Of a stretch of DNA of 64,000 nucleotides, positions 9,284 to 58,231 are shown one piece after another (position 1 is the first letter of the stretch; every line of letters begins with the position of its first letter). The notes beneath the pieces are model-generated. The model was given only the letters and a program-made list of their open reading frames with translations. It was not told the origin of the DNA and made no database searches. The stretch comes from Alkalispirochaeta sp. (GTDB lineage Bacteria > Spirochaetota > Spirochaetia > DSM-27196 > Alkalispirochaetaceae). The position numbers and the translations under genes are program-made. The stretch covers positions 4,608,001-4,672,000 of the forward strand of contig OZ271854.1 of the NCBI GenBank assembly GCA_965601925.1. The letters are read 5' to 3'.

Positions 9284-9321
9284 GTAGGTACTCCTTCTCG
9301 TAGTAGTCGATTCGTCGGTCG

Positions 9322-10767: not shown

Positions 10768-10893
10768 GCACTCTCCTTTGTCAGTTTCATACACTCTGCC
10801 CCAGGGAGCGGAATTCTACCACTGCGAGTTTCGGCCCTTGCCGTCGACGACGCTTCAAAAAATCGACAACTCTTCACTATTCGGCGGACCGCA

Positions 10894-10922
10894 TTGACGC
10901 CCTACCGGAGCCGTGCCACGAT
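10894..10922 (+). promoter_or_regulatory. Sigma70-type promoter TTGACG-N17-CACGAT with extended -10 TG
   Basis: Sequence match with 17-nt spacing, 10 nt upstream of ATG 10933. Confidence 0.5.
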
Positions 10923-10932
10923 TTTCGAGCAT

Positions 10933-23969: not shown

Positions 23970-24572
23970 GTGAAACCGATGGATTACACGAAACGGATGG
24001 ATGAACCCTTACTCCTTCAAGCGCTCTCCCTCGATACCCCGCCGTCCGTACGGGAGATGCTACGCGAGATCGGGCCGGGTGAGAACGGTTTCCATAATTT
24101 CCCGTTCGAGTTTGCCGAGGACGAGTGGAACGTCTACCTGAGACGCAACATGGAGATGGCGGAGGGCGTCGGGCTCGCTCCGTCGATGGTGGCACAGACC
24201 ACCTATTGGCTCTTTGCAGCCGATAGACCGGTCGGCGTGAGCCGATTGCGGCACAGCCTTACGGACAAGCTCCGCGTCGAGGGCGGGCATATCGGCTATT
24301 GCATACGGCCGGCGGAGCGGGGCCGAGGATACGGGAGAGAGATACTGCGTCTCACGCTGTCGGTGGCGTTTGGAAAGGGCATCGCCGAAGTTCTCGTCAC
24401 CTGTAACGAGGATAACACCGCGTCCCGACGGGTGATCGAGGGCAACGGCGGGGTGCTTCGGGACCGCACCGGCATCGTCTGTCGCTACACGATCACCGGC
24501 GATACGTTCCGTCGAGCCACTGCGCATCGTCAAACTCCAGGGCGATCGGCTCCCCGGAGAACTCGATCTTGA
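23970..24572 (+). CDS. GNAT family N-acetyltransferase
   Basis: GGHIGYCIRPAERGRGYG and NTASRRVIEGNGG motifs. Confidence 0.85.
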   Translation: MKPMDYTKRMDEPLLLQALSLDTPPSVREMLREIGPGENGFHNFPFEFAEDEWNVYLRRNMEMAEGVGLAPSMVAQTTYWLFAADRPVGVSRLRHSLTDKLRVEGGHIGYCIRPAERGRGYGREILRLTLSVAFGKGIAEVLVTCNEDNTASRRVIEGNGGVLRDRTGIVCRYTITGDTFRRATAHRQTPGRSAPRRTRS

Positions 24573-39726: not shown

Positions 39727-39772
39727 ATCGGCGCCGGCCGGCGACGCGTGCCGGACGAGAGGAGAGACGAGC

Positions 39773-44030: not shown

Positions 44031-44098
44031 TGACACGAGTCGCTCATGTCAAAAGGAAATAGCTTTTGATTGGCGGCGGGCCCGGCGAGTTCTATAAT
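44031..44098 (+). promoter_or_regulatory. Operator TGACA-N11-TGTCA plus AAATA-CTTT box, and promoter TTGGCG-N17-TATAAT
   Basis: The motif aligns without gaps to the - strand element at 55816-55883. Confidence 0.7.
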
Positions 44099-44154
44099 TG
44101 CGATGCAGTCCCTATGAGCGCTGCGCCCGGATTGTATCGGAGATTCGATATCAC

Positions 44155-46242
44155 GTGAGCGTACGAACGCGGGTCAACCAAATCATACACGCTCTTCTCG
44201 ACGCCACCGATTACGTCACCGCGTCGCATATAGCGCAGACGCTTAATGTCAGCACACGCACCGTCTTCCGCGAGATTCCGCACGTTGAGCGTCTACTCGC
44301 AAAACATCGACTGCATCTCGAGCGCCGGTCGGGGTACGGGCTCAAACTAACCGACGATGAGGAAGACCGCCGACGTCTCTTTGATGCGCTGCATGACCAG
44401 CGTATCGAAAAAAACTTCACTCCCCTCGACCGAGAGATCCTCACCGCGCTTCGCCTCATCGAGGCACGTTCCACCATTAAGCTCTTGGAGCTCGGTCAAT
44501 TTTTGAGGGTGACCGACTCGTGTGTCAGCCGGGACTTGGCGCGTTTGACGGATCGATTCACCCTCAACGGGTTGGAGCTGGTGAAGCGACCCGGGTACGG
44601 AGTCGAGCTGCGGGGGAGCGAGCGACGAAAACGAACCATGCTGATGCGTCTGTTTTTCGACAGCGTCGACCGCCGGTACTTCTCGGAGCGAGCATTCCAT
44701 CGTAGTGAGGACGTCTCGCTCACGACGGACTCGATATCGCGGAATGCCGGAGAACGGGAGCTCATTCGACAACTCTACGTACCCGGTCTTCACGCAGCTA
44801 TCGTCTCGACGCTACGCGGCGTCGAGCGGGTATTGGGATACCGCTTCACGTTCGCAGGGTTTATTACCCTCTATGTCTATCTATCCATCGCCTTGAGACG
44901 GATCGGCGACGGCCGGACGATGGAAGAAGAGATCGACATCGCGAACGCCGACGAACCGACGGTGCGCGCGGCAACGGACGCCTTTGTATCGCTCGGCGGC
45001 GTGTTGGCCGTACGGGAGGTACCGTCCGGTGAGATAGCGTTCCTTGCGCTCCTCTTCTACGCCGCGGATATCGATTCGTCGTCACGGTCCGAAACGACGC
45101 GTCCGCCGAGCGAGGAGCGTTACGACGGTCTCGTGAGACGATTGATACGAACCGTGGAAACCGAAAGCGGTTATTATCTACGCGACGACGACCGGATCGT
45201 ACCGCCGCTTTCGGCCTACGTGGAGCGGCTGATGCGCCGCATACGTCACGCCGTGCCGGTCTGGTACGCCCGGGAAGAGGTCCCGCGCTACACCGAGGTG
45301 GAGGCCCTACGAAGCGGCGTGGAGACGATCCTCGTTGAGGAGGCGCGCTCGCCGGTACCGGAGGCGGAAGTGCACGCCGTGCTTGCCTATTTCGCCGCCG
45401 CTCTGGTAGAGAAACACGAGCTGAACGTCGCAAGTATTCGTGCGATCGTCGTCTGTTCCGCCGGCATCGGAAGCTCCGTCTATCTCGCTCACAGGATACA
45501 GAGCGTCTTTCCTCAAGTCGACGTCGTGGAGAAGATATCGGCGTTCGGCGTCAATCCGGATCACATCGCGGAAGATGAGATCGACTTGGTAGTCTCGACC
45601 TATCCGATTCCCGATCTGCCCGTGGATTGCCTCGTCCTCGGCCCGAGCTTCGACCGAGGGGACGAGGAGGCGTTACGCGCGTGGATAGATACCGCTCAGT
45701 CGAGAGAGGGGCATCGAAGAACGAGCTCCGATGAACCCAAAACGGCCCACAGAGACCACGTGGACTCCATCATTCCGCCGATTCTCGCGGTGATGGAGAC
45801 CTTTTTTGTGCTCGACGCGGACGATATCGAACACGTCGGTGCGATAGGGGATACGATCGCGCAAGTAGTCGGAATCGTCGCCTCGGACCGTGGGAGGATC
45901 ACGTCGGCGTTGGAGGCGCGGGAAGCTCTCGGATCGATTATCGTACGCGAACGCTCGATTCGCCTGTTGCACTGTAAGACCGATTGCGTTACGGCGGTTC
46001 ACGCGGGCGTCTTGCGCTCCGTCGCGGTGAGTCGGGGATACGATACGTGTCTCGTGCTCATGCTGCCGGAGACTGCGACGAAACCGGAGCACGCGGTATT
46101 GGCCGAGCTAAGCAGCCAGCTGGTCCGGGATCATAACTTCGCGCAGGCACTGCGACACGGTACGCGGAGTGAGATCATCTCGGAGCTTATCCACATCTAT
46201 CACACATTTCTCTACAGCGAGCGATATCAAGGAACGAGGTAA
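44155..46242 (+). CDS. PRD-containing PTS-regulated transcriptional activator (MtlR/LicR/BglG family)
   Basis: HTH (VSTRTVFREI), Mga-like HTH, two PRD-like repeats, EIIB (VVCSAGIGSS) and EIIA (LLHCK). Confidence 0.88.
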   Translation: MSVRTRVNQIIHALLDATDYVTASHIAQTLNVSTRTVFREIPHVERLLAKHRLHLERRSGYGLKLTDDEEDRRRLFDALHDQRIEKNFTPLDREILTALRLIEARSTIKLLELGQFLRVTDSCVSRDLARLTDRFTLNGLELVKRPGYGVELRGSERRKRTMLMRLFFDSVDRRYFSERAFHRSEDVSLTTDSISRNAGERELIRQLYVPGLHAAIVSTLRGVERVLGYRFTFAGFITLYVYLSIALRRIGDGRTMEEEIDIANADEPTVRAATDAFVSLGGVLAVREVPSGEIAFLALLFYAADIDSSSRSETTRPPSEERYDGLVRRLIRTVETESGYYLRDDDRIVPPLSAYVERLMRRIRHAVPVWYAREEVPRYTEVEALRSGVETILVEEARSPVPEAEVHAVLAYFAAALVEKHELNVASIRAIVVCSAGIGSSVYLAHRIQSVFPQVDVVEKISAFGVNPDHIAEDEIDLVVSTYPIPDLPVDCLVLGPSFDRGDEEALRAWIDTAQSREGHRRTSSDEPKTAHRDHVDSIIPPILAVMETFFVLDADDIEHVGAIGDTIAQVVGIVASDRGRITSALEAREALGSIIVRERSIRLLHCKTDCVTAVHAGVLRSVAVSRGYDTCLVLMLPETATKPEHAVLAELSSQLVRDHNFAQALRHGTRSEIISELIHIYHTFLYSERYQGTR

Positions 46243-46246
46243 CGGT

Positions 46247-46705
46247 ATGGGTCTAAAAAAGTACTTACGAGAATACAAGACGGTGCGACTGAAAGTGACG
46301 GTTGCGGATTGGGAGGAAGCGATACGGGTCGGCACGGATCTATTGGTAGAGACGGGCGCGATCGAGCCGCGTTACTACGACGCCATCGTCGAGAGTTGCC
46401 GCAACCTGGGTCCCTACTTTCTCGTGGCTCCCGGTCTCGCAATGCCCCACGCACGGCCGACCGAGGGCGTCCGTGCCAACGGGTTTTCCCTCGTCACTCT
46501 GGCACAGCCGGTTTCATTCGGAGACTCGGAGAACGACCCCGTCGATATCCTGATTACTATGGCGGCAAAGGACGCAAAGACACAAAACGAACGCGCAATC
46601 GTGGAGATCGTGGAGCTCTTCGACGATGCGGATACGGTTCGTCGACTGCGCGCCGCCGAGACGATGGAAGATATCAAGGCGCTCTTGGCCGAAGAGCGAG
46701 AGTAG
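46247..46705 (+). CDS. PTS EIIA component (UlaC/fructose-mannitol type)
   Basis: GPYFLVAPGLAMPHARP and NDPVD motifs. Confidence 0.92.
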   Translation: MGLKKYLREYKTVRLKVTVADWEEAIRVGTDLLVETGAIEPRYYDAIVESCRNLGPYFLVAPGLAMPHARPTEGVRANGFSLVTLAQPVSFGDSENDPVDILITMAAKDAKTQNERAIVEIVELFDDADTVRRLRAAETMEDIKALLAEERE

Positions 46706-46733
46706 TGAGCACCATAGACCGAAGGAGTACGAT

Positions 46734-47006
46734 ATGGTTCGTCGAACCGTCACGGTTACCAATGAGGAGGGCCTTCACACCCGACCGGGCAATCAGTTCG
46801 TGAAGGAGGCCAAAAAGTACGCATGCGAGATCACCGTCCACAAAGGTGACAAAACGGCCAACGCCAAGAGCATGCTCAAGCTTTTGAAAGTGGGCATTTC
46901 CAAGGGAGACGTGATCGAAATCGCCGCCGAAGGCGACGACGAGGAGCGGGCGGTCACCGAGCTCATCGCGCTCATAAATCGGCTGGGCTCGAAACGGGAC
47001 GCGTAA
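46734..47006 (+). CDS. HPr family phosphocarrier protein
   Basis: GLHTRP (His15) and NAKS (Ser46). RBS AAGGAG. Confidence 0.93.
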   Translation: MVRRTVTVTNEEGLHTRPGNQFVKEAKKYACEITVHKGDKTANAKSMLKLLKVGISKGDVIEIAAEGDDEERAVTELIALINRLGSKRDA

Positions 47007-47155
47007 GACGACGTCGGCAGGCGGCAACGGAGTGATACGTGCGGCGTACATCCTTCGGTCCGACGACGTTGCATCGTCGGTAGTCGGCAGGCGCGTTAAT
47101 ACCGCGTTTACAAAAAGGGTTGCGATGCACCCGCCGAGTCCGACAAAGAACCGCC

Positions 47156-49351
47156 TCAGCGAACCATCAACGCCGCAACGCGGTCGCGACGAAGCACATA
47201 CTCGAAACGGACCACCTCGCCGTCGGTGGTGAAGGGAATCGTCTCGCCGGTGAGCACCTCGGTAATAGTCGTCGTTTCGGCCGTACGTCGGAGACTCACC
47301 CGAATCGGCTTCTTCCCGTTGACGAAAAACTCACTGCGGCGATCGCGCTGCACGAAGTGGGTGCATAACAACATCTCTCCATCGCCTCCCCTCACGCGAT
47401 GGACGTCCACCTCGCGTTCACAGCGGTTGGCGTACTCTACGGTGAGCGCCGCCGTAATGCGGCGCTCGGCAAGGAGGTCACGCATGAGATCGAACGCCAA
47501 ATCCCTCGCGCCCTCGACGTAGGCGGCATCGAAATGCGTCGCGACATAGAGCGCGGCACCCGTACCGACCAGGTTCCGCACCGCCGCAGGACCGTCGTCG
47601 AAAAAACGGGCGACGATCCGCGCACCACGGTCCTTGTCCCCCGACTGCCCGGACGCCACGGAGATATACTCCCTGTGCCAGTGGCCCGTATAGTTCCTGT
47701 CGCGATAGGTCACAGCCGGCGCAGCGCCCGATTCAACACCGGTGACGCGCACGCCGAAGGTTGCCGCCAACGCGCCGCACGGCAGTCCGTGGTTGTACCA
47801 CCCCCGCTCTCCCACAACTCCGCCCTGGGCGGTACCGACGAGCAATCCGCCGCTCTCGACGTACCGCGCCGCCGCGGCCGCGGTCGCACGATCGATGTGA
47901 AAGAGCGCCGGCATATGAATGACCGCGTAGTCGTCGGCATACCCCGACCGGAGGAGCTCCGGCGTAATGAAATCGACGGTGAACCCCATCTCGGTATAGA
48001 GACGATAGGCTCCCCGGATCGCCCGGAGTAGAAACTCCTCCTGGGAGACGCCGGACAAGATGATCTGATTCTCCTTGGAACACAACAAGGCCACCTCGCC
48101 CTTGCCGGTCGTAGCGTTACAGAGAAAACTGCCGTACTCCGAGAGGAATCGCCCCACTTCGGCGCACGAGTCGGTTCGTTCGGTGGGATTACCGTCCAGA
48201 TCGACGATACCGCCCCATCGCAGGGGCTGAAAGTCCCACTCCTTCCACCCCATGTAGTGAATCATCTTGGCGTCGTGACCGATCACTTCGAAGGCGTTCC
48301 TGAGGATGTCGGCGCCGCCGGTCGCACGATGAGGACCGAGCATCCAGCCGTTAATCGGACCGCTTTCGAGTTCGATAAGCCAGTACGGCTTGCCGAGGGG
48401 GCGGGAGACGCTCCGGGCGTGATCGAGAAAGAGGCTGGAGAACTCGCTCCGTCTTTCCAGTTTGTCGCCACTACCGGGATAGAGGTCGTAGCTGATGACG
48501 TCGACGACCTCGGCCATGGCAAACTGGTCAAGGCCCATCATCGATCCGAAGGGGTCTTGAGACTTCATGTAAAAGATGTTGGTCGTCGTCGGATGGTCGC
48601 GATCGAGATGCTTGATGATATCGTTTTGCCACGCTACGAAACGCACGAATCGGTCCATCCAAAAGAGTCGCCAGTCGAGCCAACGCGTAACCGAGCTCCA
48701 CCCCTCGGGTCTGATGCGCGGCGGTTCTACCTCATCGAAACTGCGGTAGACCGTGTTGGTGGCACTCCACGTCCACGCCTCGTTTAACTCCTCGATACTC
48801 CGATAGCGTCCCTCGATCCACCGCCGGAAGGCGCGAATCGAGTGGGCGTTGTAACAAAAGATCCGCATCGATCCCGACTCGGAGGACATGAAGGGAAAGC
48901 CGATTTCGTTGTGAATCTGATACGCATAAAGCGCTTTATGTCCCCGATAGCGCTCGACCACGGCCGTGATGTACCGTTCGGCCGCCCCGATATATGCCGG
49001 ATGGTCGATGCACGCCCACGAGTAAGCGGCGTTTAGGGGATAGGGGTGCCCGGTCGCATCCACGATATGTATGTCCGGATGGTCGGCATGCAACCAATAG
49101 GGGGGCGAGGCCGTTCCGCTGCCGAGAATGATACCCATCTCCGCCTCGGCGCACTCCTCGAAAAACTCGTCGAGAAACTCGAACCGATATACCCCGCTCT
49201 CCGGCTCGATCCGGTCCCACGTGTTGAAAAGCTCGGCGGTACGTACGACGTTCATGCCGCACGAACGCATGGCGGACAGATCGCGACGCCAATGTTCGCG
49301 GCGCTCCAACAGCGGATAATAGCCGGCACCGTAGGGGTACCCGTTAACCAT
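47156..49351 (-). CDS. Beta-galactosidase-like glycoside hydrolase (GH42)
   Basis: YYP, W..DL..M...GMNVVR, WDRIEPESG, HNE acid/base and IELESG nucleophile. Confidence 0.88.
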   Translation of the reverse strand: MVNGYPYGAGYYPLLERREHWRRDLSAMRSCGMNVVRTAELFNTWDRIEPESGVYRFEFLDEFFEECAEAEMGIILGSGTASPPYWLHADHPDIHIVDATGHPYPLNAAYSWACIDHPAYIGAAERYITAVVERYRGHKALYAYQIHNEIGFPFMSSESGSMRIFCYNAHSIRAFRRWIEGRYRSIEELNEAWTWSATNTVYRSFDEVEPPRIRPEGWSSVTRWLDWRLFWMDRFVRFVAWQNDIIKHLDRDHPTTTNIFYMKSQDPFGSMMGLDQFAMAEVVDVISYDLYPGSGDKLERRSEFSSLFLDHARSVSRPLGKPYWLIELESGPINGWMLGPHRATGGADILRNAFEVIGHDAKMIHYMGWKEWDFQPLRWGGIVDLDGNPTERTDSCAEVGRFLSEYGSFLCNATTGKGEVALLCSKENQIILSGVSQEEFLLRAIRGAYRLYTEMGFTVDFITPELLRSGYADDYAVIHMPALFHIDRATAAAAARYVESGGLLVGTAQGGVVGERGWYNHGLPCGALAATFGVRVTGVESGAAPAVTYRDRNYTGHWHREYISVASGQSGDKDRGARIVARFFDDGPAAVRNLVGTGAALYVATHFDAAYVEGARDLAFDLMRDLLAERRITAALTVEYANRCEREVDVHRVRGGDGEMLLCTHFVQRDRRSEFFVNGKKPIRVSLRRTAETTTITEVLTGETIPFTTDGEVVRFEYVLRRDRVAALMVR

Positions 49352-50747
49352 GTATCGCTCCTTGAAGGAGGGACAGGCTGCGCGAAGCGTCGTCGGGGCC
49401 GGCGAGCAGGATGGGCTCTATATCCGACCATTTACAGTACTCCAGGAGGGTCGCCGTGTCGTCACCGTAGGCGATGGAGTAATGGTGCTCGATACCGTGG
49501 GAAAAAATCGCCTCAAGGAGCTTCGGAGCGCCGCAGTCAAAGACGATATCGACGTGGTTTCCCGCCAGTTCACGATCGGGTCGTACCGCGGTACCGGGAG
49601 CGATAAGAAGCTTGTAGCGCCCTTCGTCCTCGCTGAGCTTCGCCATGGTTACGCGTCCGTCGGCCAGTGGGAAGTCCGCGGCCATGCCGATTCCCTCCTT
49701 GATCGTGGGATGCTCGATGTAGCGCGTCCTCGCCTCGGGATCGGCGAGACAGCGAGCCGCCGGGCCGCAATGCCACGCCTTCACGACCCCTTTCGGACTG
49801 ATGTCGACCAAATCGGCGAGGAAGGGCGGTCGATCGGAGACCGAGCGGTGGATTACCATCGTCGCGAGCGCCGGGATATCACCCTCGCAACTCACGACGA
49901 CGCCCTCGTTATTCAGCCGTGATACGACGCCGCAGACCGCCACGCGGTACAGCGTCTGAAACTCGGGCCAACACCGAATTGCAAAGGCCGCAACGTCGTT
50001 CCGGTCACCGAATGCCCGAACGGCGCGATATACGCGCGCCGACCGTTCCACCGCTTCGCGCGTCGCCTCGACGAGATCGACCTCTCCGTATATTCGCGTT
50101 ACCTCTTCGGCCACTTCGTCGTCGGTGTATCGGCGTGCAGCCTCGACGACCTCGCCGACGGAGTGATAGATAATCTCCGGCCCGATCGTCCTCGCAAAGC
50201 GCAACTCGTCTACCCCGGCGCGATAAAATCCCGGAGCACGCTCGCCGATACTGCAGAATCGAGCGCGTCGCAGCCCCTTGCGGAGTCGGATCGCCGTGAT
50301 CCATCGCCGTATCGTCGCCCGCGCCTCATCCTCGTCGACCGACGCGTAGAGCGTACTGAAACGCCGCCGGAGCTTGTAGAGAAAACTGGCACTCATATTC
50401 AGTCCGCATAGCGAGTTAAGCGGCAAGGCGGGTATCCCCGGTGTCTCCGGCTCCCGGAATCCCCAGAGAAAAAGCGGCGTCGTGGGGATCGCCTCCGCAA
50501 GGGCGACGATGGTACGCCCCATCGAGAAGGTGCCGCATTGGATGATAATCATATCCGGCGCGTCGCGACCAAACACGTCGACGGCCTGTGCCACCTCACG
50601 CTCGTCGGTAACGACCTTGGGTACCGCGCTCACTTCGACATCCTGCTGAGATCGCAGAAGGGCTTCTGCGGCATCGAGATACGATTGAGCAATATCGACG
50701 CGAAACTTCACAAAACCGAGCGAAACAAGCCCTACCTTGACATTCAT
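49344..50747 (-). CDS. L-fucose/L-arabinose isomerase family protein
   Basis: NSLCG, IRCWPEF, SCEGD, WHCG and EHHY motifs. Confidence 0.88.
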   Translation of the reverse strand: MNVKVGLVSLGFVKFRVDIAQSYLDAAEALLRSQQDVEVSAVPKVVTDEREVAQAVDVFGRDAPDMIIIQCGTFSMGRTIVALAEAIPTTPLFLWGFREPETPGIPALPLNSLCGLNMSASFLYKLRRRFSTLYASVDEDEARATIRRWITAIRLRKGLRRARFCSIGERAPGFYRAGVDELRFARTIGPEIIYHSVGEVVEAARRYTDDEVAEEVTRIYGEVDLVEATREAVERSARVYRAVRAFGDRNDVAAFAIRCWPEFQTLYRVAVCGVVSRLNNEGVVVSCEGDIPALATMVIHRSVSDRPPFLADLVDISPKGVVKAWHCGPAARCLADPEARTRYIEHPTIKEGIGMAADFPLADGRVTMAKLSEDEGRYKLLIAPGTAVRPDRELAGNHVDIVFDCGAPKLLEAIFSHGIEHHYSIAYGDDTATLLEYCKWSDIEPILLAGPDDASRSLSLLQGAIHG

Positions 50748-50764
50748 CCGACAGCCTCCTCGCC

Positions 50765-51607
50765 TCATCGCCGTGCGGCACACGCCGCTATCCGCCCCGC
50801 TACCGCCTCTCGCAGTGCCAGCCGTCCCGCCTCTGCGACGCGCATCATGGGCGGCTCGTCAGCGCCGTCCAACGCATCGCGCATGCCGCGCACAAAAGCG
50901 CGATCGATATCGGTATAATAGTTGACTTTGGCAATCCCACGTTCGATGCAGCGTCGCAGTTGGCCGTCCTCGATTCCGGACGCTCCGTGGAGGACCAAAG
51001 GAACGTGAGTTTCCTCGGCAACTCGTTCAAGAACATCAATACGAAGCGCGACGGGGCCGTGATAGGTGCCGTGACGGTTACCGATCGCGACGGCCAGAGC
51101 GTCGATGCCGCTTGAAGTGACGAAATCGCGCGCCTGTGCGGGGTCGGTGTATACCGGCTCCACCGCGCGGTCGGCCTCATCGTGCCCACCCTCTTCTCCG
51201 CCGAGCGATCCCAGTTCAGCCTCCAGCGTCACGCCGCGACGATCACACACGACGCGGGAGCGCCGTGTAGCGTCTAGGTTCGCCGCGTAGGGAAGTGCGC
51301 TCCCATCGTACATCACCGAGTCGAATCCCGCCTCGACCGCACTCTCGACCTCCTCGACCGCGGTCGCGTGGTCCAGGTGGAGCGCGTACGGCGCCGTGTA
51401 AAACCGTCCGATGGCGCGCGCAACGGCGACAAACTCGGCAAATCGCATACTCTGTTCCCGGAGCTGAATCGGCGCGATCTGGAGGATCACCGGCCGGCGC
51501 GCATATGACGCGGCCTCCAAGACACCCTTGATACTCTCCATGTTGCTGACGTTTACCGCAACTACGGCCGAGCCCTCGCTACGGGCCCGTTGGAGCATCT
51601 CTTTCAC
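50765..51607 (-). CDS. Class II fructose/tagatose-bisphosphate aldolase
   Basis: HLDH, SVMYDGS, EAELG, IGNRHG and LHGASG motifs. GTGA overlap with dhaK. Confidence 0.9.
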   Translation of the reverse strand: MKEMLQRARSEGSAVVAVNVSNMESIKGVLEAASYARRPVILQIAPIQLREQSMRFAEFVAVARAIGRFYTAPYALHLDHATAVEEVESAVEAGFDSVMYDGSALPYAANLDATRRSRVVCDRRGVTLEAELGSLGGEEGGHDEADRAVEPVYTDPAQARDFVTSSGIDALAVAIGNRHGTYHGPVALRIDVLERVAEETHVPLVLHGASGIEDGQLRRCIERGIAKVNYYTDIDRAFVRGMRDALDGADEPPMMRVAEAGRLALREAVAGRIAACAARR

Positions 51608-52617
51608 GACGCCGTTTCGTCGTACTGAGAAAAGGCGACCGCGTCGGTAGAGGCTCTCCACAACGACTTGAGCCGATCATCGAGCTTACAGAACGAGAGC
51701 GCGATACCGCCCATCTCCTGGGTCGTAACGAAGCTCCCGATCAGCGGTTTGTACGTCGCGATATGTAGTTCTTCCAAGGCCGCGGCGACGGCACCGAAGA
51801 AGATCAAGAGCTCCATCTGGGTAGTAGAGCCGCATCCGTTTACGATGACGCCGAGTTCGTCTCCGCCCTCGTAGCCGCCGTCGGCAACGAGACGCTCCAC
51901 CATCATTCGCGCGACGTCCCGGGCGCTCGCGTGGGAGATGGTGTCTCGCGCCGCCTCGCCGTGCACCCCCATACCGAGTTGCAGCTCATCGTCGCCGAGA
52001 CGAAACATCTCGGCTCCCGTGAGGGGTGAAACACCGGGAGTTGAGGCTACCGTGAGTGTACGCGTTCGATCGCGAATGTGTCGCGCCAGTTCGGCCACTT
52101 GAGAGAGGTCGCTTGACATCTCGGCGTACACGCCGGCCATCTTGTATACGAACAGCGTGCCGGTCGTCCCGCGCCGCTCCTCGATCCTATCGGCCGGTGC
52201 GCTTGCGATGTCGTCGTAGAGAATCACCTCCTCCACGGTAATCCCGTCGTCTCGCGCCATCTCAATTGCCATACGCGCATTAATGACGTCGCCCTCGTGA
52301 TTGCTGATCAAAAGGACGACTCCCGCACCGCGATCGCTGGCGGCGACGGCGGCGCAGATGGTGTCCGGTCCCGGTGCGGCGAAGATGTTCCCGTACGCGT
52401 TGGCGTCGAGCATATTCCTCCCGACAAAGCCGATGCACGCCGGCTCGTGTCCCGATCCGTTGCCGATCGTCAGGCCGACACGTCCGACCGTCTTGGGCCG
52501 GACGCGCACAATGACCGACGAGCCGGGAAGCTTTCGCACCCGCTCACCATAGGCGCGGGCAAACCCCTCGATCATGTCCTCTACAATCGTCTCCGGGTCG
52601 TTTATAAACTTCTTCAT
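51604..52617 (-). CDS. dhaK: Dihydroxyacetone kinase-family DhaK subunit
   Basis: MKKFIN, GSGHEP, ERRG and GVHGE motifs. Confidence 0.9.
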   Translation of the reverse strand: MKKFINDPETIVEDMIEGFARAYGERVRKLPGSSVIVRVRPKTVGRVGLTIGNGSGHEPACIGFVGRNMLDANAYGNIFAAPGPDTICAAVAASDRGAGVVLLISNHEGDVINARMAIEMARDDGITVEEVILYDDIASAPADRIEERRGTTGTLFVYKMAGVYAEMSSDLSQVAELARHIRDRTRTLTVASTPGVSPLTGAEMFRLGDDELQLGMGVHGEAARDTISHASARDVARMMVERLVADGGYEGGDELGVIVNGCGSTTQMELLIFFGAVAAALEELHIATYKPLIGSFVTTQEMGGIALSFCKLDDRLKSLWRASTDAVAFSQYDETAS

Positions 52618-53240
52618 CGCTCATCTCCCATCGCCCCGGCCGACTGCGCAAGGGCGCGGATAATCAACCAACACGACGTCGCCCCGGCATCCCGGTGGCC
52701 CACCGATTTGTCACCCACGTACTTGGCTCGCCCGCGTTTCGCGACCATCGCCTGCGTCGCCTCGGCCCCGTTACGGCTCGCCCGCTCGGCCTCACCGAGT
52801 GCGTCGGAGAGGGAAAGGCCCCCATCCACGGCGTGGGAAAGCGCCTCCACCGCCGGATGTAGCGCGTCGATCAACGTTTTGTCCCCGGGGCGCGCGCCAC
52901 CGAGTGCTTGGATCTTCCGCAGGGCCGCGGTGAGTCCGTCGCGCACCGTCTCGGCCGACAGCTCGCCTTCGGCGAGGCTCCGCCCCAGCTCGATGAACAG
53001 CGTTCCGAACATCGGCCCCGATGCACCACCCATCTCGGAGAGGAGCGTACGGCCGAACAGAGTGAACATCCGCCCCGGGGGAGTGTCTGTTTGCAAACGG
53101 TCCAGAGCGACGCGCACGCCCCTGGCCAGACTCTCGCCGTGGTCGCCGTCGCCGACGGCGGCGTCGAGCTCTCCCAGGAGAACGCGATGCTCTTCGATCG
53201 ACCGGGTCACCATCGCCAATGTCGTTCTATCCATCGTCAC
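52614..53240 (-). CDS. dhaL: Dihydroxyacetone kinase-family DhaL subunit
   Basis: LDAAVGDGDHG, GGASGP, GDKTLIDAL, GRA and DAGA motifs. Confidence 0.9.
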   Translation of the reverse strand: MTMDRTTLAMVTRSIEEHRVLLGELDAAVGDGDHGESLARGVRVALDRLQTDTPPGRMFTLFGRTLLSEMGGASGPMFGTLFIELGRSLAEGELSAETVRDGLTAALRKIQALGGARPGDKTLIDALHPAVEALSHAVDGGLSLSDALGEAERASRNGAEATQAMVAKRGRAKYVGDKSVGHRDAGATSCWLIIRALAQSAGAMGDER

Positions 53241-54079
53241 GGTTCCTCTTTAAACAGGTCGCGCAAAAAGGCGATCCCCTCCTGCGCAGCGTGCCGCCGG
53301 GAGGGCTCGATATTCCTCCATATCGCAACCGCGTCGCCGATCTCGCAGTTCGATGTGACGAAGGACTCAAGGGTTATCCAGCTGTCGTAGTCGATCGTTT
53401 GGAGCGCGCGCTCAAGTGCGCGCCATCGCACGGATCCGCTTCCCGGCACACCGCGATCATTCTCGCATACGTGGAGATGAACCATTCGTTCACCCGCTTG
53501 CATGACGGCCCAACCGAGATCCTTCTCCTCGATCGACAGGTGAAACGTATCGAGATGCAGTCCGACATTGTGCGCACCGATACGGCGCACGAAACGCAAT
53601 CCGTCGTTAACGGTGTTCAGGAGCGATCCCTCGTATCGATTCAAGAGTTCCACGGCCAACGTCACGCCGCGGGAGGCTGCATACTCGGCGACGCGCACAA
53701 GAACGTCTATACTCCGCGTCGCGGCGTCGGCTTGCCGGCGTCCGGTAACGCCCCACGGCGCATACAAAACACCGCAGAGAATCTCGCTCTCCAGCTCATG
53801 ACAAATCTCGATGCACGTACGCAGGTGCGCCTCCCCCGCCGCTCGCAACGCGGCGTCCTCGCTCGTGATATCCGTCGCGGCGCTCAATCCCGTACCGCAC
53901 GTGCACGCCAACGCGGTCGCCCGCAAGGCGTCTCGCGCCGCAACGCGGTCAAAAGCGCGAGGATCGACGAGGGGAAACTCAACTCCGTCGTATCCCATCT
54001 CTGCCGCTACCGGCACATAGGGCACTACGTCCTCGGTCCACTCCTCGGTAAATGTTGAGAGATGTATTCCAAACTTCAT
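53237..54079 (-). CDS. D-psicose/D-tagatose 3-epimerase family (sugar isomerase/epimerase TIM barrel)
   Basis: ELLNRYE, HLDTFH, HVCENDRG and LESF metal/catalytic residues. Confidence 0.88.
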   Translation of the reverse strand: MKFGIHLSTFTEEWTEDVVPYVPVAAEMGYDGVEFPLVDPRAFDRVAARDALRATALACTCGTGLSAATDITSEDAALRAAGEAHLRTCIEICHELESEILCGVLYAPWGVTGRRQADAATRSIDVLVRVAEYAASRGVTLAVELLNRYEGSLLNTVNDGLRFVRRIGAHNVGLHLDTFHLSIEEKDLGWAVMQAGERMVHLHVCENDRGVPGSGSVRWRALERALQTIDYDSWITLESFVTSNCEIGDAVAIWRNIEPSRRHAAQEGIAFLRDLFKEEP

Positions 54080-54157
54080 ATGGACCCGCGTGATACCAAA
54101 CGGCCCGCCCGCGAGTACCCGCGGCCGGGCCGGTACGGAACTACCGTGCGCACCGAA

Positions 54158-55441
54158 TCAGAAAATGCGCGCGACGAAGCCCGACAAGACGGCGAAGATC
54201 GAAAAGTCGTTGCCGCCGAAGGCCTGTAAAAAGTCCGCGCCGGTACTCGCCAGGAACGGAAGCGATACGGCGGCAAACACCATCAACAAGACGCCGCCGA
54301 TCGCGCTCGCCAGAATCGCACCCCGTCGCCCACCGGTCGCGTTGCCGAAGATGGCCGCCGGCGCGACATCGAAAAAACAGGCCACCGTCAGGGGCACGAG
54401 CGAGTACACGAGCCGTCCGGTAAGGGAGATAACGACCAACGTCACGATACTGGTAGCGATGGAGACGATAAACCCGATCAACAGCGCGTTGGGCGCATAC
54501 GGGAAGACCATCGGGATGTCGAGGGCCGGCGTGCTGTCGGGGATCAATTTTCCGGAGATACCGTGGAACGCCGGGATGATCTCGTTAAGCATCATACGCA
54601 CACCGGTGAGCAGCACGGTGATACCGGCTCCGAAGGTCATACCCTGCAGAATCGCGTAGCTCACCAAATCGCCGCCGCCGAATGCGTTTGCGCGACCTTC
54701 GGCACCGATAATGAGACCGACGACGAAATAGAACAGCAGCATGACGATGCCGGTGGTTACGGTGGTGTCGCGGACGAACTCCATCCATTGCGGAATGGTG
54801 AGGTTTTCCGTCGATTTTTCCTTGGGGTCTTTGTTACCGAACGCCTTGCCGATGAGCCCGCCGATAATCCCGAGACCGACTGCGGTATGGCCGATGGTGA
54901 AGCTGTCGTCACCGGTAACCTTCTTTACGAACGGCTTGATGAGCGCGGGAGTTACAACGATGTAGAGCGAGAGCATAATCGTTGCAAACACGACCAAGGC
55001 GGTACCGCTCAGTCCACCCTCGACACCGGCGGCAACGAAAATGAAAGACATCCAAAAGAAGATGTGACCGGTGAGGAAGATGTTCTTCAGTTTCGTGAAC
55101 CGCGCGACCAACAAGTTCACAAGAAATGCCAGGACCATCACCAACCCGATCGTCGATCCGTGTGTTCCCAGAAATGCGCCGAACCCGAAATCGGGATCGA
55201 TCGCCCGCATCCCTTCGGCGGCGAAGATGTCCGCAAACGCCTGTCCGATCGGATTGATGGATGCGACGATAATGTCGACGCCTCGCATGAGGACGATGAC
55301 ACCGATCACCGTCTTGAGCGTCCCCTTGACGATCGTACTGAAGTCCTTCTTCTGCAACAACATACCGACCAGAGCAATAAGGCCCAGAAAAATCGGAGGC
55401 TGGCGAAAGATGTTCTGTACGAGGTAATTGATGAATCCCAT
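54158..55441 (-). CDS. ulaA: PTS EIIC, ascorbate (UlaA/SgaT) family
   Basis: IFLTGH, FTIGH, GVRM..EIIPAFHGIS.KLIP..PALD and GG..GA motifs. The symbol is family-level. Confidence 0.9.
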   Translation of the reverse strand: MGFINYLVQNIFRQPPIFLGLIALVGMLLQKKDFSTIVKGTLKTVIGVIVLMRGVDIIVASINPIGQAFADIFAAEGMRAIDPDFGFGAFLGTHGSTIGLVMVLAFLVNLLVARFTKLKNIFLTGHIFFWMSFIFVAAGVEGGLSGTALVVFATIMLSLYIVVTPALIKPFVKKVTGDDSFTIGHTAVGLGIIGGLIGKAFGNKDPKEKSTENLTIPQWMEFVRDTTVTTGIVMLLFYFVVGLIIGAEGRANAFGGGDLVSYAILQGMTFGAGITVLLTGVRMMLNEIIPAFHGISGKLIPDSTPALDIPMVFPYAPNALLIGFIVSIATSIVTLVVISLTGRLVYSLVPLTVACFFDVAPAAIFGNATGGRRGAILASAIGGVLLMVFAAVSLPFLASTGADFLQAFGGNDFSIFAVLSGFVARIF

Positions 55442-55502
55442 ATCCTTCTCCTCTCGTCTGACGCGCCTTGTACGCGCTTTCTCGATGACACTACAGTCTC
55501 GT

Positions 55503-55784
55503 TTATCGCGGCAGCACCTGTTGCAGCTTCTCCTTGATCTCCGCAGAGTCCAGAAAGTTCCCTACCTGAACGACGGGAACACTCACCTTTCCGTCGAGTT
55601 GTGCAAAAATCTCTTTCGACGTCACGATAAGATCGACTTGCTCTGACGCCGCGGTGGTCAAGTCCGCGGTAATGACCTCGGCTTTGATGTCGAGACTCTG
55701 CAGCACCTCCGCAAGCTTGATTTTGAGAATGACACTGCTCCCGACGCCGAAGCCGCACACCGCGGCGACTCGCATTTTTTGCAT
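55503..55784 (-). CDS. PTS EIIB component (UlaB/Gat type)
   Basis: VCGFGVGSS motif. RBS AAGGAG. Confidence 0.92.
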   Translation of the reverse strand: MQKMRVAAVCGFGVGSSVILKIKLAEVLQSLDIKAEVITADLTTAASEQVDLIVTSKEIFAQLDGKVSVPVVQVGNFLDSAEIKEKLQQVLPR

Positions 55785-55815
55785 ATCGGCTCTCTCCTTG
55801 GTGGGTCTATGTTCC

Positions 55816-55883
55816 TTTGTACGTCCGCTCCGGTATCCGCACAAGGGAAAGATATTTTTATTTGGCAAGAGTTCTCCGTGACA
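55816..55883 (-). promoter_or_regulatory. Operator TGTCA-N11-TGCCA plus AAATA-CTTT box, and promoter TTGTGC-N17-TACAAA
   Basis: Same motif and same offset to the -35 as at 44031. Confidence 0.7.
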
Positions 55884-55885
55884 CC

Positions 55886-57253
55886 CTACCGATCTCGAAA
55901 GCGCTCGGTCTCCCGTAGAATCGCCTCGGCGTTGTCTCGGTTAAGATTGGAGAACTTCGCTACCTCCCGCACGGCGATACTGATTTCCCGAGCATCCCGA
56001 TTGACCCGCGTCACGGTCTCCCGTATCTCCTGCGTAGCGCCGTTGAGATCGGCGATCGCGGTAACCATCTGCGAGTTTCCCTCCCGCATCTGTTGCGACC
56101 CGGTGTGGACGGTCGCGGTGATCTCTTGCATCTGCTTGAGGGCGTCAAGCACCTGTATGCCGCCGGTGCTCTGCTCCTTCAGCGATTGGCCGATCTCGCG
56201 GAAAACGCGGTTGACCGTCCCGATGTTGTCGACGATCCCCTCGAACTCGCCGTGCGTCTCCTTCACCATACCGACGGCCCCGTTGATCGCCGTGCGGATC
56301 TCATCGAGGTCGCGCTCTACCGATGCGGCCTGCGTTCCCGCCAACTCCGCAAGCTTGCGGATCTCGCCGGCAACGACTCCGAACCCCCTACCGGCGTCGC
56401 CGGCGTGCGCTGCCTCGATGGCGGCGTTCATCGCAAGGAGATTGGTACGTTGCGCGATATCGGAGATAAGCTGATTGGCCTGGGCGAGCTTCTCGGAGTT
56501 TTCGGCGATGGTCGTCGTCTTCTGAAGGACCGCTCCCAGCTTAGTGCGCCCGCCGTCGGAGGAGCGAACCAACGTCTCGACGCTCGCCGCTCCCCGCTCG
56601 GTAGACATATCTACCGCTCGGATGCTTGCAACGAGTTGCTCGACCGCGGAAGAAGATTCGCTAATGGTCGTCGATTGACGCTCGATCAGGTGATTCAACG
56701 ACTCGATCGCTTGGGACAGCTCAGATATCGTCGCGGAGGTTTCCTCAATTCCGGCCGCCTGCCCCTCGACGCTCCCATGTATCCCTTCGACCGCCGAGCT
56801 TATCAGATCGACCGCGTCGGCGGTCTCCTCCATGCTCGAAGAGAGCGTTCCGCTGGAGCTCTCCAGCATGCCCGCTTTGTCGTCGACCTGCCGCACGAGA
56901 TCTCGCAATACGGCAACCAGCTCCTTTGACGCCTCTCCGAGTCGTGCCACTTCCGCCCGACCGCGCCACGTGATCTGTTCGTCGAGATCTCCGGCCGCGA
57001 TGCCGCGTAGCGATTCCGCGATCCCGACGAGTTGGGACGCGATCGCACGACGCACCACCAGTCCGAGTATCACCGACATTACGGCCCCGCCGACAACCAG
57101 GGCGGCCAGAGAAAACGGTGATACATGCGCGGCGAAAAACGCTTGGGATAGTGCGCTCCACGCGGCGACGATAACGGTAAAGAGGAGAAACGCTACGGCA
57201 CTGACTGAGAGTGCGACCCCCATGGATTTCAATGAATGGTCCGCCTTCTGCAT
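55886..57253 (-). CDS. Methyl-accepting chemotaxis protein (2 TM, no periplasmic sensor domain)
   Basis: [34 protein letters not shown] motif and HAMP domain. Confidence 0.92.
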   Translation of the reverse strand: MQKADHSLKSMGVALSVSAVAFLLFTVIVAAWSALSQAFFAAHVSPFSLAALVVGGAVMSVILGLVVRRAIASQLVGIAESLRGIAAGDLDEQITWRGRAEVARLGEASKELVAVLRDLVRQVDDKAGMLESSSGTLSSSMEETADAVDLISSAVEGIHGSVEGQAAGIEETSATISELSQAIESLNHLIERQSTTISESSSAVEQLVASIRAVDMSTERGAASVETLVRSSDGGRTKLGAVLQKTTTIAENSEKLAQANQLISDIAQRTNLLAMNAAIEAAHAGDAGRGFGVVAGEIRKLAELAGTQAASVERDLDEIRTAINGAVGMVKETHGEFEGIVDNIGTVNRVFREIGQSLKEQSTGGIQVLDALKQMQEITATVHTGSQQMREGNSQMVTAIADLNGATQEIRETVTRVNRDAREISIAVREVAKFSNLNRDNAEAILRETERFRDR

Positions 57254-57386
57254 AACACCCTGCAACTTCGAGTCGGTAGTACAACCGTAGTGAGTTATTG
57301 TATGCCGTTAAGCGAGGAGAACACCAATCAAAGATATTTCTCTTTGTCGCGGTCGCCCCGTGCCAGGTTGTCGTATACATCGGCCA

Positions 57387-57414
57387 TTGAACCGACCGGA
57401 ATATCCTCTATAAT
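57387..57414 (+). promoter_or_regulatory. Sigma70-type promoter TTGAAC-N16-TATAAT
   Basis: Near-consensus match, 10 nt upstream of GTG 57425. Confidence 0.6.
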
Positions 57415-57424
57415 GCTACCCATT

Positions 57425-58231
57425 GTGAAATCGATTACTACCATTCCTACAGAACTGTGCAAGCGACTCACCCATCTCTTTACCGACATCGACGACACGA
57501 TGACGAGCGACGGCTTACTTCTCCGGGAATCGTTCGGCGCGATGTGGCGTCTGTCCGACCACGGTATCCGCGTCGTGCCGGTTACCGGACGTCCTGCCGG
57601 CTGGTGCGATCATATCGCTCGCATGTGGCCGGTGGAAGCTGTAATCGGCGAGAACGGCGCCTTCTACTTCGCCTACGATCGGACCGCTCGGCGCATGAAT
57701 CGGCGGTACCTGTTGTCCGAGGAGGAGCGTGAGGCGGCCGAGGAGCGCATGGAGCGCGCCCGACGACGCGTTCTTGCGGAAGTGCCGCGATCGGCGATCT
57801 CCGCGGATCAACCGTTTCGTTTCGCCGATTTGGCGATCGATTTTTGCGAAGACGTAGAACCGCTGGAAAAAAGTGAAATTGACGCGATCTGTCGAATTTT
57901 AGATGAAGAGGGACTTACTTACAAGGTTTCCAGTATTCATATCAATACGTGGTACGGAGACCACAATAAGGTAGCATGCCTCAAGCACTATCTATCAGAC
58001 CTTGCCCCGCCGACGGAAGCACCGTCTCTGTCGGAGGTCGTGTTTCTCGGAGATTCGCCCAACGACGAGCCGATCTTTGCGGAGGTGGAACACAGCATCG
58101 GCGTCGCCAACATTCGTACCTTCGAGGACAGGCTCACCCATCCTCCGGCCTACGTAACCGAACACGAGTCGGGCCTCGGTTTTGCCGAGGCGGTGGACGC
58201 GATACTGGCAAAACGCACGGCCGCCGGCTAG
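57425..58231 (+). CDS. HAD-IIB family hydrolase
   Basis: DIDDT, VTGRPAGW, GENG and GDSPNDEP motifs. Confidence 0.9.
   Translation: MKSITTIPTELCKRLTHLFTDIDDTMTSDGLLLRESFGAMWRLSDHGIRVVPVTGRPAGWCDHIARMWPVEAVIGENGAFYFAYDRTARRMNRRYLLSEEEREAAEERMERARRRVLAEVPRSAISADQPFRFADLAIDFCEDVEPLEKSEIDAICRILDEEGLTYKVSSIHINTWYGDHNKVACLKHYLSDLAPPTEAPSLSEVVFLGDSPNDEPIFAEVEHSIGVANIRTFEDRLTHPPAYVTEHESGLGFAEAVDAILAKRTAAG

Follow-up and report, generated by a model that had tools for sequence, protein, structure and literature searches.

We analyzed a 64,000-nt stretch of DNA from Alkalispirochaeta sp. (contig OZ271854.1, forward-strand positions 4,608,001-4,672,000; about 61% G+C), here called the window, and within it a gene cluster in which a phosphotransferase system (PTS) of the Ula type stands together with an isomerase, a ketose 3-epimerase, a DhaK-DhaL kinase, a class II aldolase and a glycosidase of glycoside hydrolase family 42 (GH42). 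Based on a listing of open reading frames (ORFs) and on Pfam and NCBIfam scans, eleven genes lie at 44.1-55.8 kb, arranged as two converging units (coordinates here and below are window positions):

44098-46242, plus strand: MtlR/LicR-type transcription regulator with HTH_11 (49.6 bits) and Mga (33.3 bits) helix-turn-helix domains
46247-46705, plus strand: PTS EIIA of the Ula/mannitol type (PTS_EIIA_2, 109 bits; UlaC model NF007694, 181 bits against a cut-off of 187)
46734-47006, plus strand: HPr phosphocarrier (PTS-HPr, 101 bits; TIGR01003, 88 bits, above the cut-off of 47.9)
47156-49351, minus strand: divergent, cytoplasmic GH42 glycosidase (Glyco_hydro_42, 234 bits; Glyco_hydro_42M, 63 bits)
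49344-50747, minus strand: aldose-ketose isomerase of the AraA/FucI superfamily, in a clade of its own (SftI model, 236 bits against a cut-off of 700; both Pfam matches below their gathering scores)
50765-51607, minus strand: class II metal-dependent dihydroxyacetone phosphate (DHAP) aldolase (PF01116, 270 bits; TIGR00167, 228 bits, above the cut-off of 215.6)
51604-52617, minus strand: DhaK-type substrate-binding kinase subunit of a divergent clade (Dak1, 313 bits; TIGR02363, 317.4 bits, below the cut-off of 406.25)
52614-53240, minus strand: DhaL nucleotide-binding kinase subunit (Dak2, 169 bits; TIGR02365, 174.8 bits, above the cut-off of 138.3)
53237-54079, minus strand: ketose 3-epimerase (AP_endonuc_2, 131 bits; D-psicose 3-epimerase model, 215 bits, below the cut-off of 300)
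54158-55441, minus strand: PTS EIIC of the Asc/Gat (UlaA) family (EIIC-GAT, 353 bits; NF006919, 447 bits, above the cut-off of 380)
55503-55784, minus strand: UlaB-like PTS EIIB (PTS_IIB, 44.9 bits; cysteine motif AAVCGFGVGSS)

An earlier note on this DNA had described the same genes in the same order and places, and all eleven were recovered. It had also held that ulaD/F/G, dhaM and galK/galT/pfkB-type kinase genes are lacking, which is the case for 44031-55883: none of them lies there, and the eleven genes account for all of its long ORFs. The Pfam and NCBIfam scans gave no match to the UlaG, UlaD, UlaE or UlaF families among the ORFs of 44031-57265. The minus-strand unit reads, in the order of transcription, EIIB, EIIC, epimerase, DhaL, DhaK, aldolase, isomerase and GH42, and from the epimerase to the GH42 gene neighbors overlap by 4-8 bases or are separated by a 17-base gap.

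The cassette is a conserved unit in distantly related anaerobes

No orthologue of the isomerase was found in 40 genomes of the same genus, family or order, in which the best match is 32% identical. A search of 5.8 billion proteins returned one metagenome protein at 87% identity and then a family at 38-48% identity, mainly from marine, sediment, digester and gut Clostridia. The alignment of the isomerase family was scanned against 185,579 species genomes, giving 80 loci. Eighteen loci have an isomerase that shares 38% identity or more with that of the window, and 17 of them carry the same cassette, its core set being defined as eight genes (EIIB, EIIC, epimerase, dhaL, dhaK, aldolase, isomerase and GH42). 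All eight are intact at 14 of the 17; locus L023 also has the eight, with GH42 as two overlapping ORFs (L023:14930-17106) that reflect a frameshift, a sequencing error or a pseudogene, and contig ends truncate the cassettes of L021 and L037. The carriers, which can be summarized as 17 other anaerobic bacteria, span several orders of Clostridia as well as Erysipelotrichaceae and Izemoplasmataceae; among them are Maledivibacter, Vallitalea, Haloimpatiens, several Clostridium species, Oscillospiraceae and Tissierellales. Identity to the window proteins is 37-42% for the aldolase, 38-44% for DhaL, 38-47% for the isomerase, 43-51% for the epimerase, 44-55% for GH42, 49-66% for EIIC and 50-62% for DhaK. 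Gene fusions occur within the cassette: the epimerase and DhaL form one ORF of 494 aa in L036, and DhaL and DhaK one ORF of 572 aa in L031 and L032.

Because the cassette is intact across such a wide taxonomic range, it must have been selected as a unit; it is a conserved catabolic unit and not a chance arrangement. Neighborhood conservation was a check that the earlier note had proposed, and the cassette passes it. The note's claim of a new pathway would also have fallen to an already characterized one: neither a matching pathway nor a published description of this gene combination was found in the literature searched, which left most subscription journals outside its scope.

The sole exception among the 18 loci, L028, has a 40%-identical isomerase beside a GH127 gene and an ABC transporter, and its genome carries a DhaK-like gene (41% identical) on a separate contig. 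The L028 neighborhood (34% G+C) encodes two paralogous SftI-like isomerases with the GH127 protein, the ABC sugar transporter, an ADP-ribosylglycohydrolase-family protein, a ROK protein, an iron-containing alcohol dehydrogenase (Fe-ADH), a DUF4867 protein and RpiB. A different conserved cluster surrounds the 31-35%-identical isomerases of L038, L044, L094 and about 60 further loci from gut Opitutales, Lentisphaeria and Kiritimatiellia. This cluster of the Planctomycetes-Verrucomicrobia-Chlamydiae group comprises a PfkB kinase, the isomerase, IolB (above its cut-off), a class II aldolase and an MFS transporter, together with a xylulokinase-like FGGY kinase or a GlcD-like FAD oxidase.

Conservation of the gene set does not by itself say that its products act in one linear route. 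The cassette could be a mosaic of a generic aldolase/DhaKL module, with or without a phosphatase, and a PTS-GH42-isomerase-epimerase set unrelated to it; the module may serve to make or recycle ketose phosphates, starting from small carbonyl compounds. This genome does encode a module of that kind 16.4-20.6 kb past the right end of the window (C1:4688448-4692612), where genes for a GntR regulator, a class II aldolase, a HAD_2-type phosphatase, DhaL and DhaK lie together with no PTS, isomerase, epimerase or glycosidase. Likewise, the dhaL-dhaK-aldolase-isomerase block is constant among the cassettes, whereas the PTS genes and the epimerase gene shift position around it in L023, L031 and L032. 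However, the isomerase stays within the kinase-aldolase block, the window genes overlap as expected for translational coupling, and the eight core genes are kept together across distant taxa, with 15 of 17 cassettes full and the other two cut by contig ends. We regard a mosaic as highly doubtful.

The isomerase and the epimerase are nearest to free-sugar enzymes

A profile of the isomerase clade, searched against the Protein Data Bank (PDB), matched only L-arabinose isomerases (E 2e-9), and the catalytic E and H positions coincide in the alignment. The AlphaFold2 model of the protein (predicted local distance difference test score, pLDDT, 90.7) gave template modeling (TM) scores of 0.80-0.82 to AraA and of 0.75-0.77 to FucI/D-arabinose isomerase. 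The enzyme, which the earlier note had labeled FucI-like, is thus nearer L-arabinose isomerase. Residues E288, D312, H326 and H421/H422, which we take to be the metal-binding and catalytic set, are invariant in the clade and aligned to the AraA catalytic positions; the three-domain fold and the Glu/Glu(Asp)/His/His set of the L-fucose/L-arabinose isomerase superfamily are both present. The best NCBIfam match was to the sulfoquinovose isomerase SftI (NF048012), at 236 bits for the window protein and 273 bits for that of L020, far below the equivalog cut-off of 700.

The best PDB matches of the epimerase were 7cj4 and 5zfs (166-170 bits), along with 2hk0 (158-170 bits for the three together), which are L-ribulose/allulose 3-epimerases of free ketoses; the alignment to 7cj4 spans residues 2-274. 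The protein scored 215 bits with the D-psicose 3-epimerase model against 34 bits with a UlaE-type phospho-sugar model. As 215 bits is below the cut-off of 300, it is a relative of D-psicose 3-epimerase and not that exact enzyme. It has the PF01261 TIM barrel of ketose 3-epimerases, with the E/D/H/E metal set and the E/H/R triad, and all 17 cassette copies share the motifs E...E, HxDxxH, H and E without change. Ketose 3-epimerases are workhorses of rare-sugar manufacture; we know of no established natural role for them, and none was found in the literature searched.

The aldolase points to a ketose 1-monophosphate

The closest PDB match of the aldolase was AgaY (1gvf), and its zinc histidines and 1-phosphate-pocket residues are kept. 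In 18 of 18 cassette aldolases, the arginine of the DPR motif, present in AgaY, in Staphylococcus aureus fructose-bisphosphate aldolase (FBA) and in the housekeeping FBA of this genome, is replaced within Y-M-M (P-M-M in the window). The protein therefore has the fold, zinc histidines and DHAP pocket of class II bisphosphate aldolases and lacks their 6-phosphate arginine. An excerpt of PMC10665668 describes how Arg280 of Helicobacter pylori FBA reaches the 6-phosphate from the partner protomer, and how class II sulfofructose-1-phosphate aldolases have lost the same arginine. The arginine missing from the cassette enzymes probably occupies the position equivalent to Arg280. Its loss points to a ketose 1-monophosphate as the substrate, which would be cleaved to DHAP and a free aldehyde. 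We also considered that the aldolase might split a ketose 6-phosphate to free dihydroxyacetone (DHA) and glyceraldehyde 3-phosphate, with DhaKL as a true DHA kinase; this was rejected, as the 1-phosphate-pocket residues are conserved.

DhaK and DhaL form a divergent kinase that needs no DhaM

DhaKL is the only kinase in the cassette. The replacement of NYxGD by NHEGD in DhaK, which the earlier note had pointed out, was confirmed (S-N-H-E-G-D in the window, K-N-Y-x-G-D in the DhaK of Escherichia coli and Lactococcus lactis), and N-H-[A/E]-G-D is found in 18 of 18 cassette DhaKs. The counterparts of His56, Asp109 and His218 of E. coli DhaK in the alignment are likewise conserved in all 18. Around these catalytic residues runs a signature (G-N-GSGHEPAC, S-N-H-[A/E]-GD, GVHGEA, NGCGQTT, TTQEMGG) that none of the five other paralogues in the genome has, and the clade-wide pocket changes include K104S and Y106H. 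DhaL carries the D-x4-D-x-D motif as DAAVGDGDHG, invariant in 13 of 13 aligned proteins. In terms of the DhaKLM kinases, the His/Asp/His set of DhaK and the Asp triad of DhaL are present and DhaL passes TIGR02365, while DhaK stays below the equivalog cut-off of TIGR02363 and no DhaM is encoded with dhaKL. A covalent-ketone mechanism that is kept and a pocket that is remodeled are the picture expected of a substrate change, and the cassette DhaK may well act on a substrate other than that of DHA kinase.

The genome holds six DhaK-DhaL pairs and one EIIA-Man domain, the latter being part of an 843-aa DhaM-HPr-EI (Enzyme I) protein next to a canonical dhaK-dhaL pair, 3.3 Mb from the cassette. The cassette DhaK is the most divergent of the six paralogues (Dak1, 313 bits against 375-436). 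A separate, higher-scoring DhaK adjoins an EIIA-Man gene in 6 of 10 cassette genomes, and in two of the 10, G042 and G046, no EIIA-Man match was found. G046 is a single-chromosome metagenome-assembled genome (MAG) of 3.7 Mb in which the cassette DhaK is the only DhaK; the MAG of L023 gave neither an EIIA-Man nor a GalK match. As two of the 10 cassette genomes lack EIIA-Man, the cassette kinase needs no DhaM. The possibility raised in the earlier note against its own reading, that DhaKL depends on a dhaM located elsewhere, does not stand on this count.

An exhaustive HMMER search of 1.84 billion representatives (clustered at 50% identity) found only six that were at least 47% identical to the cassette DhaK, of which four are DhaL-DhaK fusions and one a fusion of DhaK with a class I aldolase of the DeoC/LacD family. 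In the last of these (P0094, 663 aa), a cassette-clade DhaK domain, 48% identical, is joined to the aldolase, so that the link between kinase and aldolase extends to an aldolase of an unrelated class.

The phosphate donor of DhaL was also considered. In the earlier note, phosphoenolpyruvate (PEP) was to be the donor, with the locally encoded HPr and EIIA standing in for DhaM. At least 2 of 10 genomes have the cassette DhaKL without an EIIA-Man protein, and the window and six relatives (L022, L023, L024, L027, L031 and L032) have HPr and/or EI genes beside the cassette, which would suit such a recharging of DhaL. However, the EIIA_2 fold is unrelated to the EIIA-Man domain of DhaM, and the regulator supplies the only local EIIA, as its C-terminal domain, in 11 of 16 relatives; a free EIIA, as in the window, is found in 5 of 16. 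The 5.05-Mb genome has six HPr paralogues, that of the cluster included, and about 10 EI paralogues, often locus-specific, so that an HPr gene beside the cassette is unremarkable. Single DhaL-DhaK chains, the layout typical of ATP-dependent kinases of the DAK family, make up four of the six nearest representatives. Other DhaKL pairs of this genome adjoin ABC transporters without a PTS gene; at least two, at 1.43 and 3.95 Mb, adjoin ribose-type ones. We found nothing in support of the local PTS proteins in the place of DhaM and consider PEP an improbable donor, ATP being likelier.

A second question is whether the kinase acts before or after the aldolase. If the PTS delivered a ketose 1-phosphate, the aldolase would yield DHAP and glyceraldehyde (or DHA), and DhaKL would phosphorylate the triose, as in liver fructolysis. 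All catalytic residues of a DHA/glyceraldehyde kinase are indeed kept, the fusion and the adjacency of kinase and aldolase would suit this order just as well, and DAK enzymes phosphorylate D-glyceraldehyde according to PMC6429413. Such a triokinase would, however, leave the conserved isomerase, GH42 and free-ketose epimerase with no kinase for their products; free DHA would not be released by an aldolase that keeps its 1-phosphate pocket; the DhaK pocket is remodeled with respect to the canonical DHA kinase of the genome; and the epimerase-DhaL fusion of L036 links the kinase to the epimerase step. This order of events is very unlikely in our view, and a kinase acting on the ketose ahead of the aldolase is retained below.

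The GH42 clade is a candidate for a new sugar specificity

The translated GH42 has no N-terminal hydrophobic signal, and it scored only about 140 bits against solved GH42 enzymes. In the excerpt of PMC10688820 on BiBga42A, ten residues of subsite -1 contact galactose, among them Arg121 (to O3/O4), Glu366 (to O4) and His369 (to O6), and a passage of a review gives Viborg et al. 2017 as reporting that Trp replaces His in a GH42 arabinopyranosidase. The window enzyme has the catalytic and trimerization domains of the family; it keeps the acid/base NE and the nucleophile E, along with its counterparts of Asn159, Asp285, Tyr287 and Trp326 of BiBga42A. Four of the ten contacts, those aligned with Arg121, Phe356, Glu366 and His369 and counted among the O3/O4/O6 ligands of subsite -1, are not kept in the pairwise alignments. 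The cassette GH42 clade has an invariant Tyr at the Arg121 position and P-[LI]-[HR]-W-G where E-K-W-H aligns. This pattern is common to the 15 cassette GH42s aligned, at about 25% identity, where single positions may be misaligned, and makes the clade a candidate for a new sugar specificity. Only two of five cassette genomes have a GalK that exceeds the cut-off, and that of the window is not one of them (best 122 bits, cut-off 226.65), which supports a non-Leloir reading of the cassette.

The PTS, its regulator and genes around the cassette

The PTS components have the marks of the L-Asc/Gat family, namely the PF03611 EIIC, the EIIB cysteine and the EIIA_2 histidine; the histidine of the EIIA motif PHARP is invariant in six free-standing cassette EIIA proteins. 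Matches of the regulator to PRD (E 0.011) and PTS_IIB (E 0.0015) were weak, and Pfam detected no EIIA domain in its C-terminal 150 aa or so, whereas the regulators of related cassettes, to which it is 19-24% identical, carry an EIIA_2 domain.

Most relatives carry a phosphatase and an aldehyde reductase that the earlier note did not mention. Among the 15 loci extending far enough beyond GH42 to be counted, 13 have a HAD-IIA phosphatase gene (NagD/phosphoglycolate-phosphatase-like) downstream of it, followed in 11 by an Fe-ADH gene, whose product scored best with the model of lactaldehyde reductase FucO (256-294 bits, below the cut-off) and not with that of glycerol dehydrogenase. The two genes are adjacent, with both in 11 loci, the HAD gene only in two and the Fe-ADH gene alone in none. 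A FucO-like Fe-ADH fits a free aldehyde as the aldolase product. The HAD-IIA and Fe-ADH genes are absent from the cassettes of the window, L031 and L032. Another phosphatase gene is found close by in the window:

57236-58231, plus strand: HAD-IIB (Cof-type) phosphatase (Hydrolase_3; TIGR01484, 68.8 bits, above the cut-off of 41.8), divergent from a chemotaxis gene

From its position it is a possible member of the cassette, standing in for the HAD-IIA phosphatase of the relatives. The chemotaxis gene, at 55886-57265 on the minus strand, encodes a methyl-accepting protein and ends about 100 bases upstream of the EIIB start on the same strand; it is found in none of the related cassettes. A promoter-like site at 44070-44098, before the regulator gene, is a consensus match only, the counts from promoter and terminator scans being near those expected for shuffled sequence. 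Elsewhere in the window, a GH29 alpha-L-fucosidase gene adjoins a solute-binding protein gene (24493-27476, minus strand), 20 kb from the cassette and with no link to it found; two LarA-like genes of the lactate racemase family lie at 4792-6231 and 38452-41065 (plus strand), the second preceded by a weak Fe-ADH-family gene, and two enolase-superfamily genes lie at 8201-12030.

A proposed route from a glycoside to DHAP and a free aldehyde

Based on these results, we favor a route to which we give nearly, but not quite, an even chance: a glycoside or sugar would be imported, hydrolyzed, isomerized, 3-epimerized, given a C1 phosphate by a DhaKL that works without DhaM, and split into DHAP and a free aldehyde. 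More specifically, EI, HPr, EIIA, EIIB and EIIC would take in and phosphorylate a small glycoside or sugar, and a HAD phosphatase, encoded in the operon in most relatives and maybe by the neighboring HAD-IIB gene in the window, would strip the PTS phosphate. The cytoplasmic GH42 would then free an aldose, the AraA-like isomerase would convert it to the 2-ketose and the epimerase would invert C3. DhaKL would hold the open-chain ketone on its conserved histidine and phosphorylate C1, probably from ATP; the aldolase would release DHAP and an unphosphorylated aldehyde, to be reduced in most relatives by the FucO-like Fe-ADH. All steps after PTS uptake we infer from the families to which the proteins belong, the patterns at their active sites, the fusions and the order of the genes.

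The nearest relatives of the enzymes, AraA, the free-ketose 3-epimerases and GH42, are free-sugar enzymes, which supports this route. The sequence of hydrolysis, isomerization, epimerization, phosphorylation and cleavage set out in the earlier note is broadly kept, in line with the free-sugar enzymes and the missing bisphosphate arginine; its PEP/EIIA/HPr donor and its FucI label are not. Galactosylglycerol, anhydrogalactose derived from agar or carrageenan, and L-ascorbate were considered as substrates, and no specific support was found for any of them.

Several points weigh against the proposed route. The first is stereochemical. D-Galactose, L-arabinose and D-fucose, the known products of GH42, isomerize to 3S ketoses, which 3-epimerization turns into 3R. 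To our knowledge, every characterized PF01116 aldolase (FBA, tagatose-bisphosphate (TBP) aldolases, YdjI, SqiA, IolJ) cleaves 3S substrates, so that a GH42-type sugar would arrive at the aldolase as a 3R ketose. Either the sugar is therefore not the one assumed, or a step of the scheme is different. A sugar with the opposite C3, of the allose/altrose, gulose/lyxose or L-fucose/L-galactose/L-rhamnose type, would remove the mismatch, as the altered GH42 pocket allows; the alternative is an aldolase clade with a new specificity. If the 3S specificity of the aldolase is kept, the aldose would have a C3 hydroxyl opposite to that of galactose and L-arabinose, in agreement with the remodeled GH42 pocket. 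Second, uptake of a glycoside is not assured, as the UlaA-type EIIC proteins known to us take only monosaccharide-sized substrates. Third, the residue mapping of GH42 and the aldolase relies on pairwise alignments at about 25-40% identity. Fourth, the PTS product is phosphorylated, so that a free-sugar route requires a phosphatase, yet HAD-IIA is missing from the window, L031 and L032, whose cassettes are otherwise complete. The aldolase-HAD-DhaL-DhaK module that this genome has without a PTS adds to this point, since it suggests that the phosphatase of the cassettes may serve the chemistry of kinase and aldolase and not the PTS.

The phosphatase bears directly on a route in which all intermediates are phosphorylated. 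There the PTS phosphate would be retained, GH42 would act on a phospho-glycoside, the isomerase and epimerase on a sugar 6- (or 5-) phosphate, and DhaKL would add the 1-phosphate; the resulting ketose bisphosphate would give DHAP and a phosphorylated aldehyde, which in most relatives HAD would dephosphorylate and Fe-ADH reduce. The cassette would then be a non-orthologous analogue of the Lac-PTS/tagatose-6-phosphate pathway, and by our own mapping each lacABCDFEG function has a counterpart here. No initial phosphatase is required, which suits the three cassettes without HAD-IIA, and the adjacency and co-occurrence of HAD and Fe-ADH fit successive steps. The aldolase is above the cut-off of the ketose-bisphosphate aldolase subfamily (TIGR00167), SftI, the best family match of the isomerase, takes a sugar with an anionic C6 group, and the cassette GH42 has His/Arg beside Trp where the canonical Glu and His contact O4/O6. 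On the other side, the 6-phosphate arginine is missing from 18 of 18 aldolases, the DhaK clade has one lysine fewer (K104S) and no new basic residue close to the site, and both the epimerase and the isomerase are far more like free-sugar than phospho-sugar enzymes; we also know of no GH42 that acts on phospho-glycosides. We judge this fully phosphorylated route unlikely.

Comparison with known systems

The L-fucose/D-arabinose route of E. coli runs through FucI, FucK, FucA and FucO, and the rhamnose pathway is analogous. The cassette resembles them in the order of aldose to 2-ketose, 1-kinase and DHAP aldolase, with an isomerase of the same superfamily and an Fe-ADH in 11 of 15 relatives. It differs in having DhaK-DhaL in place of an FGGY kinase, a PF01116 in place of a PF00596 aldolase, an added 3-epimerase and a front end of PTS and GH42. 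In the Lac-PTS/tagatose-6-phosphate pathway (lacABCDFEG), a glycoside is taken up by a PTS and passed to an intracellular glycosidase, an isomerase, a ketose 1-kinase and a tagatose-type aldolase. The layout is alike, and the window aldolase best matches AgaY and TBP-aldolase models; however, no proteins are homologous except the class II (GatY/AgaY) aldolase, and the cassette has an extra epimerase and lacks the 6-phosphate arginine. The cassette thus belongs to neither the fucose-type nor the Lac-PTS system, being set apart from both by its kinase, its aldolase family and its epimerase step.

Compared with DhaK-DhaL-DhaM (E. coli 1oi2, L. lactis 3ct4), the Dak1/Dak2 proteins of the cassette have all the catalytic and Mg-nucleotide residues, but are set in a sugar operon without DhaM, with DhaK below its equivalog cut-off and its pocket remodeled. 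The E. coli Ula (SgaTBA) ascorbate regulon shares the families of EIIC, EIIB and EIIA, and the cassette EIIC passes the ascorbate EIIC cut-off; in contrast, UlaG, UlaD, UlaE and UlaF are absent from the cassette, and its epimerase is of the free-ketose type. Reportedly, Pereira et al. (Metab Eng 2016) engineered pathways in which AraA or XylA, D-tagatose 3-epimerase, a ketose 1-kinase and a DHAP aldolase lead to glycolaldehyde and DHAP. Five reaction types are said to be shared, including a free-ketose 3-epimerase and a FucO-type reduction, but those are man-made sets of E. coli and Pseudomonas genes, whereas the cassette is a natural operon with another kinase and another aldolase family.

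Two further systems resemble single steps. LerK of the Mycobacterium smegmatis tetritol pathway is, in the excerpt of PMC10733421, a DAK-family L-erythrulose 1-kinase working with LerI/DerI towards erythrose 4-phosphate; going by that description, it is alike in being a DAK kinase that acts on C1 of a ketose longer than DHA, whereas the partners in the cassette are an aldolase, an AraA-like isomerase and GH42. SqiA of the sulfo-EMP2 pathway (PDB 7nc7, 7ncc), as it appears in the excerpt of PMC10665668, is a PF01116 aldolase of a ketose 1-monophosphate that has lost the arginine. The cassette differs in having no sulfoquinovosidase, sulfofructose kinase or sulfonate exporter, and its aldolase scored 149-152 bits against SqiA and 156-161 against FBA/TBP aldolases.

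In conclusion, the cassette is a real, conserved and apparently undescribed sugar-catabolic unit. With some reserve, and as the less probable side of the question, we propose that it is a natural counterpart of the engineered route from aldose through ketose, 3-epimer and ketose 1-phosphate to DHAP, with a DhaM-independent clade of ketose 1-kinases and a GH42 subfamily of new specificity, serving a glycoside outside the known pathways. Several carriers, among them Maledivibacter halophilus M1, Clostridium amylolyticum DSM 21864, C. oceanicum JCM 1407, C. sediminicola and Vallitalea maricola, are cultured strains and hence open to test. A possible family of sugar-acting, DhaM-free DhaK-DhaL kinases bears on how extra DhaKL pairs are annotated, of which this genome alone has six pairs in all. 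If the proposal is true, it would give free-ketose 3-epimerases a physiological role, and an operon that places the 3-epimerase between isomerase and kinase makes that natural role testable.

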